A DNA stretch of 64,000 nucleotides from Candidatus Hydrogenedentota bacterium (GTDB lineage: Bacteria; Hydrogenedentota; Hydrogenedentia; Hydrogenedentales; JAEUWI01). This document shows positions 1-7,140 of the stretch, piece after piece; within the stretch, counting starts at the first letter, position 1, and every line of letters begins with the position of its first letter. The notes below the pieces were generated by a model. The model saw only the letters and a program-made list of their open reading frames with translations. It did not search any database and had not been told where the DNA came from. The stretch lies in the NCBI GenBank assembly GCA_034669905.1, contig JAXMOL010000043.1, positions 1-64,000 of the forward strand. Reading direction: 5' to 3'. A program made the translations under genes and the position numbers.

Positions 1-141
1 TTTTACGTCTTCGACGTAATGCAGGCGAGCCGCCTGCGCTCCCAAGCCCCAATTCTTTAAGATGGCAACCAAACGACTTGGAAAATGTCCGAGATGAATC
101 TTCGCCTATTTAGATTCGCCTGGCGTATTTTTCTAAAAGTG

Positions 142-175
142 AAACGGCGGACCATCTCAGGATGGTCCGCCGTTT
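142..175. terminator. Intrinsic terminator-like hairpin downstream of the DUF1559 gene
   Basis: Perfect 15-bp stem aaacggcggaccatc-tcag-gatggtccgccgttt, 36 nt beyond the stop of the minus-strand gene at 211. Confidence 0.75.
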
Positions 176-210
176 GTCTTATGGTTCACCCGAAAGTCCG
201 GTTTTTTGGA

Positions 211-1116
211 TCAGGGATGGCTGTGCCCATGGCCTGCTTCGTGAAGGATGAGTCCGGCTTCATTGACCGGAAACTCCCCTTGAAGGCCAGCGCCGTACTT
301 CAGGAATTCGACGTGGCCATCCATGTATAGCACGTTGGCACCCGCCGGTATGTGATTGTAGTGGGTCGGCTCATCGGAGATCCCATCGTGCAGCGTGACA
401 ATCTGTGATTGCGAGCGCGCACTACCCGATGGATTGTTGATGTCCGTTATGAAGAAGCGCTCGATCCCTTCGCGCAGACGAAGTATGGTGTCGTATCCCC
501 CGACAGGAACGGGGGAGCCGCCATCATCTATCATGGGCCAGTCTTCGTCCACGGCGTTGATGTGCCCGGCCTCGATGTCTTCTCCCAGCGATTCTGCAGC
601 CAGTTCAAAGTTTTCGAGGTCGATCTCGTTGCGGAAGAGGGTGTCGGAAAGGGCAAACCCGTAATAATAATAGGGCTCCGCGCCGACTTCGCAGGGTTCC
701 ACCACCCCGTTGAAACTGAAACCGGGAATCTCTTCCCAGGTTTCCCCGGCCGTATTTCCTTCATCCCACTGCTCGATAGCTGTGCTGCCAAAGGCATTGC
801 TGGGACAGACCAGGACATCCCAATCGGAAAGGTACTCGGGGTAGAGTTGGGATGGCTCAAAGATGGCATTCCACGGCTGAATCTCATCTTCGCAATTGAG
901 CACTTTCATTTTGGGATAGTGCTCTCCATCTGACTCCATGGCATACATCTTGAACACGATGCCCATTTGCTTCAGGTTGTTCTGACAACTCGCCCGACGG
1001 GCGGCTTCTCTGGCTCGGGCCAGCGCGGGCAGAAGAATGGCCGCGAGAATGCCAATGATGGCAATAACCACCAACAATTCAATAAGGGTGAACCCTTTTT
1101 GTGTAAAGTCCTTCAT
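211..1116 (-). CDS. DUF1559 prepilin-type N-terminal cleavage/methylation protein with H-X9-DG C-terminal motif and His-rich tail
   Basis: [51 protein letters not shown]-terminal [16 protein letters not shown]; ends [14 protein letters not shown] at 1116 follows an AAGGA SD. Confidence 0.92.
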
Positions 1117-1198
1117 GATACAGATTCCTTCGTGCCAAGTGAGCACGTGCGTAAATTAGAAGAGAAAATTTCGATACGGTCAGCAGTGAGGAGTGGTA

Positions 1199-1642
1199 TC
1201 AGTAAGCGGGAGGGCCGCGCGAAGGCCCGGGGGGACGGATTCCAATGGGGTGCCACACGGAGCGTCCGGCCGGGGTGGGCCGCTCGGGAACGCGCCATTC
1301 GAGGGGAAGACTTTCTGGGGCCGAAGCGACGATGGGCAGGGCGGCGGGGCAATAATAGGGCCCCGGGGAAGAGGTGGGCGGGGAGTCGTGTGAATCGGAC
1401 GGACCGCCGCAGATCCCCGTGCCGTATTCGTGTGGGATAGCGCCCCCCGCATGGAACATGGGGACGTCACCGTGCCAGTGCAGGACGGGTACACCGGGCA
1501 TCATGGTGGCCAGCCGGATCGCAAGCGCCGTCAACATGAGCAGGGTGGTGCCTTTACCCCGTGCATGTGGACGCGACGTACCCGAGGCGCCGGGGGTGAA
1601 ACCGCGCCGCGACCAGGCTGCTATGGACTTCGGGTAAATCAT
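1199..1642 (-). CDS. Putative DUF2946-like leader (uORF) ending in RGPP
   Basis: Hydrophobic stretch, HWHGD/HAGG/H motifs, Pro-rich linker, C-terminus PSRGPPAY; fills the gap between two co-oriented genes; start uncertain (1642 or 1537). Confidence 0.6.
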   Translation of the reverse strand: MIYPKSIAAWSRRGFTPGASGTSRPHARGKGTTLLMLTALAIRLATMMPGVPVLHWHGDVPMFHAGGAIPHEYGTGICGGPSDSHDSPPTSSPGPYYCPAALPIVASAPESLPLEWRVPERPTPAGRSVWHPIGIRPPGPSRGPPAY

Positions 1643-1656
1643 GGGTCAGGGCCTAT

Positions 1657-2685
1657 TCAGGGGGACTCGTCCACTTCGCCCTCAATCAGACGGGATACAA
1701 CCCGCTGCTGAACCCGGAGTAGATTGTGCTTGGCAAATTCCCACCCTTCATCACAGGCGGCCAGCGCTTCGTCATAGCGACCGAGTTCCACATAGGATTT
1801 AGAGAGGAAGAGATAGGACTCATAGTGAATTTGTTCCTGAAAATCATCGAATTTTTCATGGCGGCTCCGATAGGCGAGCTTCGTTTCGAGTGCCCGGTCT
1901 ACGGCTTCGCGAAGTAGCAAGGCGGCCATTTCACAGGCCTCCGCTTTCGATGTGGGGAGATAGGTTTCTATCTCGTCGCCGCGAGGAGTCTCTTCCATTT
2001 CATCGTGGTCGTCATCTTCCTCGTCATGGTGATCGTCTTTCAAGGCGTCGAGCCGGTCGCTGTATTCGAATAGCAGACGCCCGAGGGCAGCCCGCACTTC
2101 GAAACTGTTTGGGTTGGCCGCAATGCCGGCCACGAGCATTTCACGGGCCTCCGCAGGCTCCTGCGCGAAATCTGCGAGAAAGAAGGCCCCCATCGTGTAG
2201 AGCCGTTCCAGTTTCGGATTAAGTTTGACGGCCAATTGGTACCAGGGGATCAGTTCCACAGGGTCATCATGGATATGCCCCTCCGAATAGCAGGCGATGT
2301 GGCGCTGAATGTTCCCAAGAAGCCCACGCCAGTCGCGATCTTCATCGAGTACCATGTTCAGCCCCTCGGTGTGGCCCAGGCCAACGGCCGTGTCTTGGCT
2401 GTCGCCACGCATGAAACCCAGGTCCTCTTCGCCCCGGGTGGGCATGCGCTGAAGATTGCCACGGTGGAGATACTCCATACTCTTCAACCACATGAGGTCC
2501 GCGATGGACATCTGCAGTTGCCCCAGGAGCGAGAGTGCGATGGATTCTTTGGCAGCATCGATCTCACTGGGTTGGTAGGTGGCCTCCCTGACGGTCACAT
2601 GGTCGCGTACCGCATGGGGCACGAGGCCTGCCATGGCGGCAACCGCGATGAGTGAGAGGGTGGTGCCGGTGAAGGTTTTTGTCAT
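1657..2685 (-). CDS. Membrane-anchored TPR-like protein with His/Asp/Glu-rich insert (PilG/XapA-like)
   Basis: N-terminal TM/signal; helical repeats (AVKLNP, GIAANPNS, LGRYDEAL); DDHHDEEDDDHDE insert; follows the ABC permease. Confidence 0.75.
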   Translation of the reverse strand: MTKTFTGTTLSLIAVAAMAGLVPHAVRDHVTVREATYQPSEIDAAKESIALSLLGQLQMSIADLMWLKSMEYLHRGNLQRMPTRGEEDLGFMRGDSQDTAVGLGHTEGLNMVLDEDRDWRGLLGNIQRHIACYSEGHIHDDPVELIPWYQLAVKLNPKLERLYTMGAFFLADFAQEPAEAREMLVAGIAANPNSFEVRAALGRLLFEYSDRLDALKDDHHDEEDDDHDEMEETPRGDEIETYLPTSKAEACEMAALLLREAVDRALETKLAYRSRHEKFDDFQEQIHYESYLFLSKSYVELGRYDEALAACDEGWEFAKHNLLRVQQRVVSRLIEGEVDESP

Positions 2686-2695
2686 GACACCACTC

Positions 2696-3463
2696 CTAGA
2701 GGTTCAGCGAGCGAAAGCGCTGCATGCCCACGGCCATAAAGAGCAGGGAGTAGACGGCCGCGTAGACCGTGAGGGCCGCCAGTACCCAAAGGGGCGCCGC
2801 AGGAAAGTTGTGAACTTCTCGCTTGGTCAAGTCGAAGAGCTCCAGGTGGGGGAGCAACCAATACAAGGTGTCGACAACCCAGACGCCCCATCCCTCGAGG
2901 TCGGTACGTACGGTGATTAAGGTGTTGGCAAAAGTCTGCATGGCCAGGGCGAGGAGCATCGACACGGTTACGTTGCCGCCCTGGGTCAGGTAAACGGATA
3001 GACTGAGCGTCATGCCCGCGATAATCCACATGGAGAGCATGCGGAGGTAGACCGATTGAAAAAAGACACCTGATACCGGAATGTCGAGGATGCGAAACAG
3101 CAGATACAGCTCCGCGGAGAAAAGCAAGACCACGGCAGAGGCCATGACACCGACGCCAAGGTATTTCCCCAGAAAGACTTGAAGCCGCGATACGGGCTTC
3201 GCCAGTAAGGGATAGAGTGTCCGGTTTTGAATCTCGTTGGGAAGTTGGCGCGCGGCCGTGACGACACAAATCAGCACGGCCAGCAGTCCCGTCACGGTGA
3301 AGCCAACGTCTTTCACAAACTTGCCCAGCCCCTCGGTGCCGAATCGACTGAAGAGGCCTGCTCCAAAAACAATCAGAGCTGCGAGGATGAGGACCACGTA
3401 GGGATCCTTGCGCCGGAAGGATTCAATGATGGTTACTTGGGCGATACCCAATACTTTTTCCAT
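2696..3463 (-). CDS. ABC-2 type exporter permease (PilI/Xap-like)
   Basis: About 6 TM segments; EIQNRTLYPLLAKPVSRLQVFLGKYLG motif. Confidence 0.9.
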   Translation of the reverse strand: MEKVLGIAQVTIIESFRRKDPYVVLILAALIVFGAGLFSRFGTEGLGKFVKDVGFTVTGLLAVLICVVTAARQLPNEIQNRTLYPLLAKPVSRLQVFLGKYLGVGVMASAVVLLFSAELYLLFRILDIPVSGVFFQSVYLRMLSMWIIAGMTLSLSVYLTQGGNVTVSMLLALAMQTFANTLITVRTDLEGWGVWVVDTLYWLLPHLELFDLTKREVHNFPAAPLWVLAALTVYAAVYSLLFMAVGMQRFRSLNL

Positions 3464-3496
3464 GGGAGGGTTCCTTTTTTGCCACGAAGGGCGATA

Positions 3497-4429
3497 TTAA
3501 CTGACCTTGTGGCCAATGCTATGGACGAAGAAGTCTTCCAATGACCCCGGTTCCTCGAAGCTGTGTTGGATGGGGACGTCCAACTCTTCCAACAGGCCAT
3601 TGAGGGCCGCATGGGCCTCGACGCTGTCGGCAGAGAAGGTGGTCTGCCCGTTGCTCACCGCATGGATGAATACGCCCCGGGGAAGCTGGGGGGGAGAAAG
3701 CAGGCCATCGACGCACACAATGTGTCGACGGATAGCGTTGGACATGGCGGAGAGCTTATCCTCGACCAGAACCCGTCCCTCGTCGATGAGAATGACCCGA
3801 TCACAAAGCATGGTCACTTCCGACAGTTCGTGGGAGGAAAAGAAGACGGTTTTTCCTTTTGCCTTGAAATCCATCAGAATACGGCGCACGTCATAGCGGG
3901 CCACCGGGTCAAGTCCCGAGGTGACCTCGTCCAGGATGAGCAAGTCGGGTTCCCCCATAATGGCCTGGGCGATGCCCACCCGTTGGAGCATACCCTTGGA
4001 GAATCCGCGGACGGGTTCCCGGTCCCGCCCCGTTAACTTAACCTTGTCCAACAGATCGTCGATAAGGTCTTCCCGATCCCCTCGGGGGATCTCACGGAGT
4101 TTGGCGAACATTCGCAAGGTTTCCCGGGCGTTCAAGAAAGGATAGTAAAGGGCAACCTCGGGGAGAAATCCCACCCGACGGCGTCCCGCCATGTGTCCGG
4201 CAGGCAGGCCCATTACCTGAACGGTACCCCGGGTCGGCTTACGGAAACCCATGAGTACCTTGATGGACGTGGATTTTCCGGCACCGTTGGGGCCAATAAA
4301 ACCGACCACTTCACCGCGACGGACGGATAGATTCAGCCCATCTACGGCGCGAATCGTTTTGCCACTGTCGGTCTTGTATTCCACCATCAAGTCGGTGATG
4401 GTGATTACTTCATCGGGGATGTCTATCAT
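3497..4429 (-). CDS. ABC transporter ATP-binding protein
   Basis: Walker A GPNGAGKST, signature FSKGM, Walker B LLILDE, H-loop SSH. Confidence 0.95.
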   Translation of the reverse strand: MIDIPDEVITITDLMVEYKTDSGKTIRAVDGLNLSVRRGEVVGFIGPNGAGKSTSIKVLMGFRKPTRGTVQVMGLPAGHMAGRRRVGFLPEVALYYPFLNARETLRMFAKLREIPRGDREDLIDDLLDKVKLTGRDREPVRGFSKGMLQRVGIAQAIMGEPDLLILDEVTSGLDPVARYDVRRILMDFKAKGKTVFFSSHELSEVTMLCDRVILIDEGRVLVEDKLSAMSNAIRRHIVCVDGLLSPPQLPRGVFIHAVSNGQTTFSADSVEAHAALNGLLEELDVPIQHSFEEPGSLEDFFVHSIGHKVS

Positions 4430-5139
4430 GGGGCAAATTCTTTCTCGGATGTGTCTGCGTCAGTTTGGGAGTTTGTCATTGGCTCTTGGATAGGCGTTTG
4501 CGGTTCGGATTGGTCAACCGGTGACGCCGGCTTATCTCGGTGAGGGCTGTGCCCGGTTTCCTCATCGTCGTGGTGATCGGAGTCCCCATCCCGGTGATGC
4601 TCCCGTGTATGGCGCGCCAGATAAGGGTTCCGGCCTTCCTTGCGTGCCTGGAGATACTCCTCCGCTTGTGCGACCTCGAACTCAAGCCCCAGCGCCTGGT
4701 CGAATACGCTGTCGTTCACACCTTCACCTTCCGCCAAGTAGTGCTGAAAGGCCCGAATGTGATGTTCCTTTGCCGCACAGCCCGCGCTGTGTTCGAGGCG
4801 CCATCCGTCGTCCTCGAGGCGATAGTAATACTCAATGCCTTTGAAGGTTTCGCACGCTTCGTCGCCCGCTTCGCGGATGTATACATGGACTACACCAAAG
4901 GCGGGGCCAAAGAGTTCATAGGGGCGGTCCATATCCACGATGGCCAAATAGTCAAAGTTCTCCCGGCTTACTTCCCCGGGCTCGGTGGCAAACCACTCGT
5001 CAATGTGGTCTTGGGCGAGGTCTTTGAGCGACGCGCGAACGTCATGGTTCTCGTAGGTGGCATGGGCCACCCACCCGAAAAAGACAAAGAGAACGATGGC
5101 AACGACATAGATGTCTTGCCTGCGTATTATGATTTCCAT
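4426..5139 (-). CDS. Membrane-anchored hypothetical protein with His-rich C-terminal region
   Basis: N-terminal TM; HSAGCAAKEHH; RHTREHHRDGDSDHHDDEETGHSPH; ATGA overlap with the ABC ATPase; GGGAG SD. Confidence 0.8.
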   Translation of the reverse strand: MEIIIRRQDIYVVAIVLFVFFGWVAHATYENHDVRASLKDLAQDHIDEWFATEPGEVSRENFDYLAIVDMDRPYELFGPAFGVVHVYIREAGDEACETFKGIEYYYRLEDDGWRLEHSAGCAAKEHHIRAFQHYLAEGEGVNDSVFDQALGLEFEVAQAEEYLQARKEGRNPYLARHTREHHRDGDSDHHDDEETGHSPHRDKPASPVDQSEPQTPIQEPMTNSQTDADTSEKEFAP

Positions 5140-5256
5140 AGGGGAGCACTCCCGACTTAGAAGGTTTTCATACGGGGGGGTAGTGCGTCAGTCGCGCAGT
5201 AGACGGAGCGTAAGGGGGCAACGTTCCACGCATGAAGGACGCGGCGATCGATGAAT

Positions 5257-5640
5257 CTACTCGCCGCGCGGAGGGGGACCCCGTTGGTAGACAGGCAGGT
5301 GGGTCAGGCGACCTGCTGAGGCATCCCCTGGCCCTCCAGGTGTGTCGGTCTGGGGCGATGCAATAATTCGGGAAGCCGTCGAATCGGCCCCGAGGGTGCG
5401 GTCCAGTGAAAGGCATACGACACAATGAGAAGGGGGATCGGTGTGGGTGCCATCCCCGCAATCGGGATCGATGCAATCGCCCGCGTCGGCATCGCAATGG
5501 AGCGGGGCAGGGGGCGCACTATGGGCCAGCACATAATGGAAGGAAGCTCCCAGACTGGAAAGCCCCAGGCACAACGCCATCACGATGTGACGCGCCACGA
5601 GACAAAACCTTCGGTTCCAGTGCCAGGCTGAGGACTTCAT
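5257..5640 (-). CDS. DUF2946/CruR-like leader peptide (signal/TM, His/Cys, CxxC, C-terminal RGPP)
   Basis: Hydrophobic N-terminal segment, FHYVLAH, HCD...HTDPPSHCVVC, ends YQRGPPPRGE; first ORF after the promoter. Confidence 0.75.
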   Translation of the reverse strand: MKSSAWHWNRRFCLVARHIVMALCLGLSSLGASFHYVLAHSAPPAPLHCDADAGDCIDPDCGDGTHTDPPSHCVVCLSLDRTLGADSTASRIIASPQTDTPGGPGDASAGRLTHLPVYQRGPPPRGE

Positions 5641-5661
5641 TGAAATAGTGTGCTCCCAATC

Positions 5662-5688
5662 GATAATGAAGATGATAAAGCATTATCA
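5662..5688. promoter_or_regulatory. Fur-family-like operator overlapping the spacer and -10 element
   Basis: GATAATG-N12-CATTATC inverted repeat (5662-5687) and TGATAA-agca-TTATCA palindrome (5673-5688), built from Fur-box GATAAT hexamers; spacing differs from the canonical 7-1-7. Confidence 0.6.
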
Positions 5689-5700
5689 ACTAGGTGTCAA
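5672..5700 (-). promoter_or_regulatory. sigma70 promoter TTGACA-N17-TATCAT
   Basis: Minus strand: ttgaca (5700-5695), 17-nt spacer, tatcat (5677-5672), about 30 nt upstream of the ATG at 5640. Confidence 0.8.
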
Positions 5701-5973
5701 GGAGAAATCGGGTTATGTCACAGAATCGACTTTAGGCCCTTGGAATATACCAACCGAGAATGGCGTCGTTGATACAGGGACTGTCGGATGTTGTTGGATA
5801 TCACGGCACATCACGGGCAAGCGTAATCGCCTGACCGTGGCACCCGACGTTCCTATTGAGACATCTGGCCATCGATAGAGAAAATGCCCCGTATCCCGCG
5901 TCGTTAACCTTTTGGAAGCCCCATAAGGGCCTTGGAGGTGGGGCAAACCACCAAGTCACTGCTGATTTGTAGC

Positions 5974-6321
5974 TAGTGGATTGAATCGAGCAAATGGGCC
6001 TTTATTGATAGCCTTTTTGCTGGGCAAGAATAGAGTTGGAAACCGATGTCCGTTGTAGCGTTGTTCTATGAGACGGGCCTTCAGCCCTCTGTGGATGAAA
6101 CATCCCTAAAACATGGGGCTTTGCCCCATGCTGGTATGTTGCCGGGCCGTTGGCCCTGAAAAAGCGAGACTGCAAAGACGATTTGTTCAGCGCCAAATGC
6201 GCGCCCCATATCAGCCTGGGGCGAAGCCCCAGGAATAAGAACGAAACTATCTGGGCCAGGGCTGAAAGCCCAATTCATTTCACATATGAATAAGAGCATT
6301 GAACTCCGGTTCAGACCACTA
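5974..6321. mobile_element. MITE-like element with imperfect terminal inverted repeats and an internal inverted REP pair
   Basis: Left end tagtggattgaatc; right end (reverse complement) tagtggtctgaacc; inside, two ~85-bp inverted units (gggccttcagccct..catggggctttgccccatg / cctggggcgaagccccagg..agggctgaaagccc); no transposase. Confidence 0.6.
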
Positions 6322-7140
6322 TTCCCCCTTAAACTCCGGCTCCCGCTTTTCCATGAAGGCCATGATGGCCTCCATGAGGTCATGGGTGTGGATGCGGGAC
6401 GTGTTCCAGTGGGCCACGAAATCCAGACCTTCCTGGATGCGGTGCTCTTCGGAATATTGGAGGACCTGCTTCACGCCCTGAACGGCGAGGGGGGAGTTGG
6501 CCGCGATATCTCCGGCCAGGGCACGGGCAGCTCCGAGGAGTTCATCCTTCGTTTCGTAGACCGCGTTCACGAGGCCAAAATGATGGGCCCGGTCTGCTGT
6601 GACCCGATTGCCCGTGTAGGCCATTTCGCGTGCGAAACCTTTTCCCACGATGGCGGTGATACGTTGCAGGGTGCCCAGATCGGCGACCATAGCGATCCTG
6701 GTTTCCATGATGCTGAAGGTCGCGTCGCTCGTGCAGAGCCGAATATCCGCCGCCGTGCAGAGGTCCACGCCGCCGCCGATGCAATGGCCATGCACCGCCG
6801 CAATGACCGGCTTACGACACCGCTCCAACGTCGAGAAACTATCCTGCCAATCGCGGACGAATTGAAAGAATTCCGTCGCCGCCGCGCCTTTGCTGATACG
6901 GTCGTCCGTTGACATCAGATTTGCCGCTGCTGCTTTCAAATCGAGGCCAGCGGTGAAGAGCTTTCCCTCGGCCCAAAGGACGATGGCCCGAATTTCGGGG
7001 TCCTTGTCCAATTCGCGGAAGGCAGCACCAATCTCTTCAAAAAAGACCGGGGCCATGGCATTGAGCCCTTTGGGGTTGTTCAGCACGACTTCGGCCACAT
7101 GGCCATCTCGCTTAACGCGTATCACGGCGTAGTCTGTCAT
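6319..7140 (-). CDS. Crotonase-family enoyl-CoA hydratase / delta3,5-delta2,4-dienoyl-CoA isomerase-like
   Basis: FTAGLDL, KPVIAAVHGHCIGGGVDL, ADLGTLQR, FMEKREPEFKG; ATG 7140 with GAGG SD. Confidence 0.93.
   Translation of the reverse strand: MTDYAVIRVKRDGHVAEVVLNNPKGLNAMAPVFFEEIGAAFRELDKDPEIRAIVLWAEGKLFTAGLDLKAAAANLMSTDDRISKGAAATEFFQFVRDWQDSFSTLERCRKPVIAAVHGHCIGGGVDLCTAADIRLCTSDATFSIMETRIAMVADLGTLQRITAIVGKGFAREMAYTGNRVTADRAHHFGLVNAVYETKDELLGAARALAGDIAANSPLAVQGVKQVLQYSEEHRIQEGLDFVAHWNTSRIHTHDLMEAIMAFMEKREPEFKGE

Follow-up and report, generated by a model that had tools for sequence, protein, structure and literature searches.

A conserved, probably zinc-starvation-induced Hydrogenedentota operon with a Zur-type operator, two arrest-type leader peptides and a His-gaining DUF1559 prepilin-type protein

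We analysed 64,000 nt of DNA from a Candidatus Hydrogenedentota bacterium (positions 1 to 64,000 of contig JAXMOL010000043.1, assembly GCA_034669905.1; hereafter the window), in which an operon occupies the minus strand from position 5700 to position 211. Its parts are a promoter with an overlapping palindromic operator, a first leader peptide (leader A), a membrane protein referred to here as mem, an ABC ATPase, an ABC-2 type permease, a TPR protein, a second leader peptide (leader B) and a DUF1559 protein. This operon is real and conserved, and it is a new arrangement of known control elements. Sequence comparisons indicate that it is probably induced by zinc starvation, combining Zur-gated transcription, CruR-like control at two points (arrest on, metal off), a predicted zinc-binding DUF1559 protein and, in the envelope, an ABC machine that carries a separate predicted metal site. 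The parts listed in a first-pass annotation of this DNA, namely the promoter, the palindrome, both leaders and the gene order, were all found in the sequence. Its proposal of metal-starvation control by a repressor operator and two arrest-type leaders is likewise supported by the comparisons below, with the metal refined to what is most likely zinc, through the Zur-type box.

The promoter (5672..5700, minus strand) is of the sigma-70 type, with a -35 element TTGACA at 5700, a 17-nt spacer and a -10 element TATCAT ending at 5672 (11/12 consensus match). The operator (5670..5691), with a 16-bp palindrome core TGATAA-N4-TTATCA (5688-5673), spans the promoter spacer and the -10 element, and an extra ATTATC half-site lies after it, near the predicted start. 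In the relatives, TTGAC(A) or TTGCAA was found at the matching promoter position and the palindrome was kept at the same place, with the consensus TAATGAnAA-N4-TTaTCATTA. A first matrix, built from the cassette promoters of five relatives with the window left out, identified 13 sites scoring at least 15 in the host genome (7.44 Mb, 59% GC). The znuA promoter ranked first, the other five of the top six being a site at C11 (a gene with no assignment), one at C60 (a further leader-DUF1559 pair), one on C3, that of the window and one at a MerC-family gene. Scores of at least 15 were obtained upstream of znuA homologues in 18/26 genomes (two of the eight misses had less than 110 nt of upstream sequence), versus 1/26 for gene-body controls and 12/4,893 for background upstream regions. 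With a matrix retrained on znuA-locus sites, which is not fully independent of the first because those sites were picked with it, the window site scored 17.0, the ninth best value in 7.4 Mb. The host has three Fur-family genes, one of them divergent from znuA with the box between the two, and a homologue of this gene lies beside znuA in 19/26 loci.

Since the matrix derived from the relatives' cassettes picks out znuA promoters, and since a Fur-family gene is divergent from znuA, the operator is most likely a Zur (zinc) box rather than an iron-Fur box. The first-pass annotation had described a Fur-like operator; the operator itself stands, but a canonical iron-Fur box was rejected, the window site being absent from the 18 genome matches to TGATAAT-N-ATTATCA (at most two mismatches), one of which precedes another Fur-family gene, on C6. 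The operator spacer is also one base longer than that of the 7-1-7 Fur consensus. A 16-bp Zur-like motif described upstream of proteobacterial zepA genes provides a precedent (PMC10957091), and the box could be a means of mapping the zinc regulon of an uncultured phylum. COG0523 had been considered as the target at C11, wrongly: that ORF has no family. A second Fur-family gene of the host (L073, G000:C6:169900-170900) scores best against PerR models and is preceded by a 7-1-7-like site; the gene downstream of it is, judged by eye, ferritin-like.

Leader A (5257..5640, minus strand) is the first ORF (open reading frame) after the promoter and a DUF2946/CruR-like upstream ORF (uORF) of 127 aa, with a hydrophobic N-terminus, a His cluster, a CVVC (CxxC) site and, 43 aa further on, an RGPP motif 4 aa before the stop. 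Its match to Pfam PF11162 (DUF2946; residues 30-123) is below the cut-off (12.3 bits versus 23.7, E=0.29), and the export signal, corresponding to a hydrophobic stretch at residues 12-28, was judged by hydropathy alone. In CruR (Bp2923, DUF2946) of Bordetella pertussis, 45 residues separate CxxC from RAPP, a spacing that varies by no more than one or two, and the CxxC, the RAPP and the spacing have been shown to matter for copper control (PMC9426467, Roy et al.). Leader A shares this layout, with a CxxC 43 aa before a C-terminal RxPP, a predicted N-terminal export signal and a position as first gene of its operon. Leader B (1199..1642, minus strand) is an arrest-type uORF with no Pfam match and no CxxC, in which a hydrophobic stretch is followed by HWH..H..HE, YYC, 43 aa and RGPPAY. 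Compared with a same-genus copy, its codons 31-147 show nine synonymous and five non-synonymous changes and its codons 1-30 show 0 and 7, respectively; the true start may therefore be the ATG at 1537, near Met36.

The distance from the putative metal site to the motif is conserved in the relatives. In leaders at the A position, the CxxC is separated from the motif by 43-46 residues in 9/9 sequences, which barely align and yet keep RAPP or RGPP. At the B position, YY[C/S] or CxxC lies 42-44 residues from the motif in 9/9, giving a range of 42-46 aa for the Cys or YY[C/S]-type site in all 18 aligned leaders. Both leaders are small ORFs with a predicted localisation signal and an RGPP/RxPP near the C-terminus, conserved upstream of a gene. 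Across the genome, 20/40,607 small six-frame ORFs have RGPP among their final 12 residues, a frequency similar to that of shuffled motifs (28-45). The motif alone is unremarkable genome-wide; two copies directly before genes, on one strand and within 5.5 kb, are far above chance. A crude folding test was used to predict whether ribosome stalling would expose the ribosome-binding site, and the value for leader B rose from 0.34 to 0.62. The 3' halves of both leaders have a C-over-G bias (e.g. 31/10 and 26/10 per 60 nt, without a genome control), which by analogy fits a candidate Rho site as in CruR. At one related locus (L157:903-1667), two tandem RGPP leaders directly precede a single DUF1559 gene.

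RAPP and RGPP are arrest motifs (Fujiwara 2025, PMC12992588). Arrest peptides of this kind were first described upstream of sec/yidC genes, and all the products encoded downstream of the window leaders are envelope proteins, as would be expected if the leaders were SecM/ApcA-like secretion monitors coupling expression to membrane-insertion capacity, with the His and Cys residues incidental. We nevertheless consider this very improbable, given a Cys/His site that stays 42-46 aa away from the motif although the leaders cannot otherwise be aligned, and a leader restricted to the His-gaining DUF1559 paralogue. The leaders are better regarded as candidates for zinc-sensing ribosome arrest, the tested examples found being sensors of copper, and leader B would represent a new, non-CxxC sensor chemistry.

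The DUF1559 gene (211..1116, minus strand) encodes an N-methyl/H-X9-DG prepilin-type protein, for which the N-methyl motif, PF07596 and TIGR04294 all scored over cut-off. Its likely start is the ATG at 1116, with AAGGA upstream, rather than the GTG at 1146. It belongs to a His-gaining clade (H243, H252, H292 and the tail HGHSHP). A structural model (predicted local distance difference test score 90.7) gave pilins or pseudopilins for all the top 23 VIA rows, although the likeness is weak (best Z 4.5, root-mean-square deviation 4.0 over 121 residues), and a Foldseek search with the same model yielded no match at E<=0.001; we predict a type IV pilin fold that accommodates a large insertion. Of 104 close homologues, 93 carry both H292 and the His tail and 11 do not; H243, H252, H292 and the tail are what sets the two groups apart. 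At the His-type loci, a leader was found in 18/18 and a box within 1 kb in 11/18 (one further locus has too little upstream sequence). For the His-less sister, which often lies in tandem just upstream of the His type, the corresponding counts were 0/5 and 0/5. Two of the more distant clade members have no leader, and boxes are mostly limited to the host's family. The host has 49 DUF1559 paralogues, five of them with a leader. A single origin of the leader-bearing DUF1559 genes was not supported: a quick tree required four changes, a value as low being obtained in 69/500 shuffles, and two long-branch rows in it are unreliable. The DUF1559 family is very large and has no assigned function, and four papers were found to mention it; a regulated His-gaining member with an unregulated His-less sister makes a ready matched pair for a metal-binding test.

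Other DUF1559 loci have related layouts. In L042 (G000:C60:8868-11344), a His-less DUF1559 gene (no leader, a long 5' region, no Rfam match) is followed by a box, a leader and a His-tail DUF1559 gene. The same tandem is seen in L150-L152, and it resembles pairs of constitutive and zinc-starvation paralogues. Two other DUF1559 genes of the host (L043, G000:C19:120341-122138, and L045, C12:13131-15140) are preceded by related Cys-rich RxPP leaders with no Zur-type box; one encodes a protein with a Met-rich tail and the other is followed by a gene for a YHS-domain protein, possibly a copper branch. In L138 (G011:C73:20000-34000), znuA-znuC-znuB, a Zur-type box, an RGPP leader and a His-tail DUF1559 gene lie in this order and are followed by genes for an ABC ATPase, a MacB/FtsX permease and a DUF3299 protein.

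Between the two leaders lie four genes, all on the minus strand. The mem gene (4426..5139) encodes a single-pass membrane protein of an unnamed family, with a conserved core of about 150 aa containing SAGC.A.EHH and a variable His-rich tail. It is followed by the ABC ATPase (3497..4429; profile matches DrrA/GldA-like, below the cut-offs of both), the ABC-2 type permease (2696..3463; PF12730 over cut-off) and the membrane-anchored TPR protein (1657..2685), a distant paralogue of the TPR proteins of the host's two other triads, with a conserved His triad (H74, H137 and H139). Across 56 close sequences, H74, H105 and H139 never vary, and H137 is kept in 93%. H74, H137 and H139 are kept in 122, 104 and 118, respectively, of 133 distant relatives, these being the matches of at least 200 aa among the weaker rows of the best 150 of 801 matches. 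The His-rich tracts of mem and the TPR protein, to which the first-pass annotation had drawn attention, are lineage-specific (at least three His in the TPR loop in 12/56 close sequences), and the His/acid tracts were rejected as conserved features of the two proteins; the conserved His residues are those of the triad. The search for a solved homologue specific to the TPR protein returned only generic TPR matches. The family comprises 340 clusters at E<=1e-10, the nearest Atlas clusters being from Verrucomicrobiota, Armatimonadota and Elusimicrobiota, and it gains here its first functional lead.

The TPR protein was found in 17/61 genomes searched and at 27 loci in the genome collection. With the window, L024 and L025 added, 30 loci were tallied, of which seven had too little upstream sequence or no ATPase in view. 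In the other 23, for which 1.8 kb of sequence ahead of the ATPase gene was available, mem is present at 11 loci and absent from 12. The 11 cassettes with mem have a CxxC-RxPP leader A in nine and a box scoring at least 14 in eight; in the 12 triads without mem, neither a box nor a leader was found within 1.8 kb (0/12 each). Both leaders are present together in 6/11 full cassettes, and L024 and L025 have three leaders each, in line with conservation in the relatives. Genes for a MinD-ferredoxin ATPase, NifB/NifX, Mrp and a metallo-beta-lactamase precede several of the mem-less triads (L093-L095, L098-L101), some of which lie upstream of a phosphodiesterase-family gene. In L024 (9926-12247), a heavy-metal P-type ATPase gene stands between two leader-DUF1559 units in one operon.

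The triad had initially been read as the export module of the pilin; on this model it would be a dedicated PilGHI/Xap-like machine extracting, stabilising or metal-loading the His-rich pilin for a metal-capturing pilus or pseudopilus. Myxococcus PilGHI and Geobacter XapA-D share with the window an ATPase, an ABC-2 permease and a membrane-anchored TPR protein near a prepilin-type gene. The host has two further ATPase-permease-TPR triads, and hhalign comparisons of the window TPR protein with their PilG/Xap-style TPR proteins, which are distant homologues of it, gave probabilities of 85% and 94% (E 6e-6 and 2e-7); only these host paralogues were compared, not PilG or XapA. The host also encodes a prepilin peptidase and seven secretin-domain matches over cut-off. 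A leader and a DUF1559 gene follow the TPR gene in 7/14 mem-type loci (12 in which mem is seen, plus two that are truncated at the 5' end and were assigned by similarity), and in the mem-less L088 a leader and two DUF1559 genes lie farther upstream, ahead of the ATPase gene. In Myxococcus, pilus motility is lost when pilGHI is deleted, and a Geobacter mutant in xapD has no detectable PilA (PMC5544727, bioRxiv 114900), which makes a pilin-handling role conceivable.

The linkage is nevertheless loose, which weighs against a dedicated exporter. Half of the mem-type cassettes and nearly all the others have no adjacent DUF1559 gene, and the slot after the TPR gene is filled elsewhere by a second mem, an LRR protein, DUF1007-NicO, a MacB-type transporter or a phosphodiesterase. 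Most His-clade DUF1559 genes have no triad nearby. The slot holds a complete DUF1559 gene in six cases; the His tail is present in four of these genes and absent from two, which come from another clade. The window TPR protein belongs to a His-triad subfamily, unlike the TPR protein of the separate, more typical triad of the host (C2), which does not have the conserved His residues, and PilGHI and Xap are not known to be under metal control. We regard a dedicated pilin machine as rather unlikely. As the two halves occur apart more often than together, with a DUF1559 gene in only half of the mem-type loci, the operon instead joins two modules that each bring a leader of their own.

On the reading that we prefer, induction by zinc starvation, a zinc-loaded Zur, the product of the Fur-family gene divergent from znuA, would bind the box and block the promoter, and the operon would be transcribed when zinc falls. 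The nascent leader A would stall at RGPP, allowing the downstream genes to be expressed, unless metal bound the His/CxxC site about one ribosome-tunnel length (43 aa) upstream, releasing the stall and shutting these genes off. Leader B would repeat the metal check for the last gene alone, and the DUF1559 cassette may therefore be seen as a self-gated module plugged in behind the triad. The His-gaining DUF1559 protein would be a membrane-anchored or pseudopilus-borne zinc-binding protein collecting metal outside the cytoplasm. The mem-ATPase-permease-TPR set would form a separate envelope machine with a predicted metal site (the TPR His triad), most likely moving or loading metal or a partner with metal bound to it; of the whole mechanism, the cargo of this machine is the least secure part. 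A bolder version, which we put forward as speculative and doubtful, is a zinc-scavenging pseudopilus, in which the Zur-induced His-gaining DUF1559 protein replaces or joins its constitutive His-less sister and carries zinc across the envelope, the His-triad TPR protein and the exporter-fold ABC transporter unload it, and two arrest peptides that sense zinc, one of them representing a new type without CxxC, tune the system. If this were true, DUF1559 paralogues would be interchangeable nutrient-binding pilins.

Several observations weigh against induction by zinc starvation as outlined here. No Fur-family NCBIfam model reaches its cut-off for the candidate regulator, and the host "ZnuA" operon resembles Zn and Mn systems equally, with every match under the cut-off. 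High-scoring host sites also precede unrelated genes (C11 and C3). No box was found nearby in 3/11 cassettes or in 7/18 His-clade loci, three of these seven being operon-internal. The crude folding test predicted no unmasking for the leader A ribosome-binding site (0.31 to 0.37). The tested DUF2946 leaders sense copper, CutF doing so in the opposite direction. The Zrg-like arrangement was seen in L138 only, with a DUF1559 gene in that slot in 0/13 other DUF3299 loci. Finally, the related loci, being kin, are not independent of one another.

Two of the known systems bear on the direction and the metal of the control. The window operon resembles that of CruR in its putatively exported uORF, where CxxC precedes a C-terminal RxPP by about 45 aa, its long intergenic region and its position at the head of a predicted metal-acquisition operon (PMC9426467). 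It differs in having two leaders and a Zur-type operator, a leader B without CxxC, zinc as the likely metal, and an ABC-TPR cassette and a DUF1559 gene as targets, whereas the target of CruR is a TonB-dependent transporter. In CutF of Rhodobacter capsulatus, a DUF2946-type leader also couples metal to the next gene by stalling, but copper induces the stall and a detoxification gene, and a Zur-gated operon would fit the opposite sign (bioRxiv 2025.02.05.636593).

A rival reading is a two-metal logic, in which Zur would open the operon in zinc shortage and the leaders would sense copper, nickel or cobalt, or act in a CutF-like manner (on when metal is present), guarding against mismetallation. 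Both CruR and CutF use CxxC to detect Cu, with responses of opposite sign, and a NicO-family gene follows the TPR gene in L031. Further leaders in the host, none of them accompanied by a box, are an RGPP leader ahead of a TolC/RND efflux-type operon and Cys-rich ones ahead of a Met-rich DUF1559 gene. At L046 (G000:C60:32248-38886), a His-rich RGPP uORF that looks like a CzcI-type leader heads an operon of the outer-membrane factor/MFP/RND kind (family names assigned by eye), and a heavy-metal P-type ATPase-like gene is divergent from it. On the other hand, the pairing of leader and box tracks the His-gaining paralogue and, once, znuACB, and RAPP uORFs also head zinc-starvation zrgA genes (137 vs 2). 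Such a logic therefore appears distinctly improbable.

A related layout is that of the Vibrio zrg operon, which is Zur-repressed and has a Zur box, a small RAPP-ending first gene (DUF2607), a zinc-binding envelope protein and an ABC ATPase and permease (PMC9817125). However, ZrgA is a DUF2796 protein and not a prepilin, the permease family is unlike that of the window, and there is no TPR protein or second leader. L138 has this layout with a DUF1559 gene in the slot of zinc-binding ZrgA (PMC9817125, Table 1).

The first-pass annotation had taken the combination to be undescribed, which does not hold in full, as DUF1559 is among 30 gene groups enriched downstream of RAPP uORFs (112 vs 68 AAPP, enrichment 6.46, adjusted p 1e-31; PMC12992588, Fig. 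4B source data). The coupling of RAPP leaders with DUF1559 is thus already known, from the source data of that study and not from its text. A leader-B-type HWH sequence is also listed there (row 2689). The main text of PMC12992588 has no match for pilin, prepilin or DUF2946, and no operator analysis, paralogue contrast or ABC-TPR cassette was met in the parts of that source considered. In the open-access literature, no description was found of a Zur-boxed mem-ABC-TPR cassette or a Zur-regulated DUF1559 gene, nor of two arrest leaders in one operon, a non-CxxC leader type or a His-gain paralogue pair, the RGPP list (Fig. 4A, PMC12992588), which may hold these leaders, being outside the search.

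The last gene is followed by a hairpin (142..175, minus strand) with a 15-bp stem and a weak U-tract. It had been annotated as a terminator; the hairpin is present, but it was not called by a terminator scan, and it is a possible terminator or 3' stabiliser. No riboswitch or other RNA family was found at gathering level in positions 1-7000 of the window (two sub-threshold matches) or in 11 related loci (0). A sub-threshold match to the Acido-Lenti-1 RNA (33.6 vs 37 bits, E 8e-5) lies at 6189-6233 on the minus strand, after a gene that by eye is enoyl-CoA hydratase-like.

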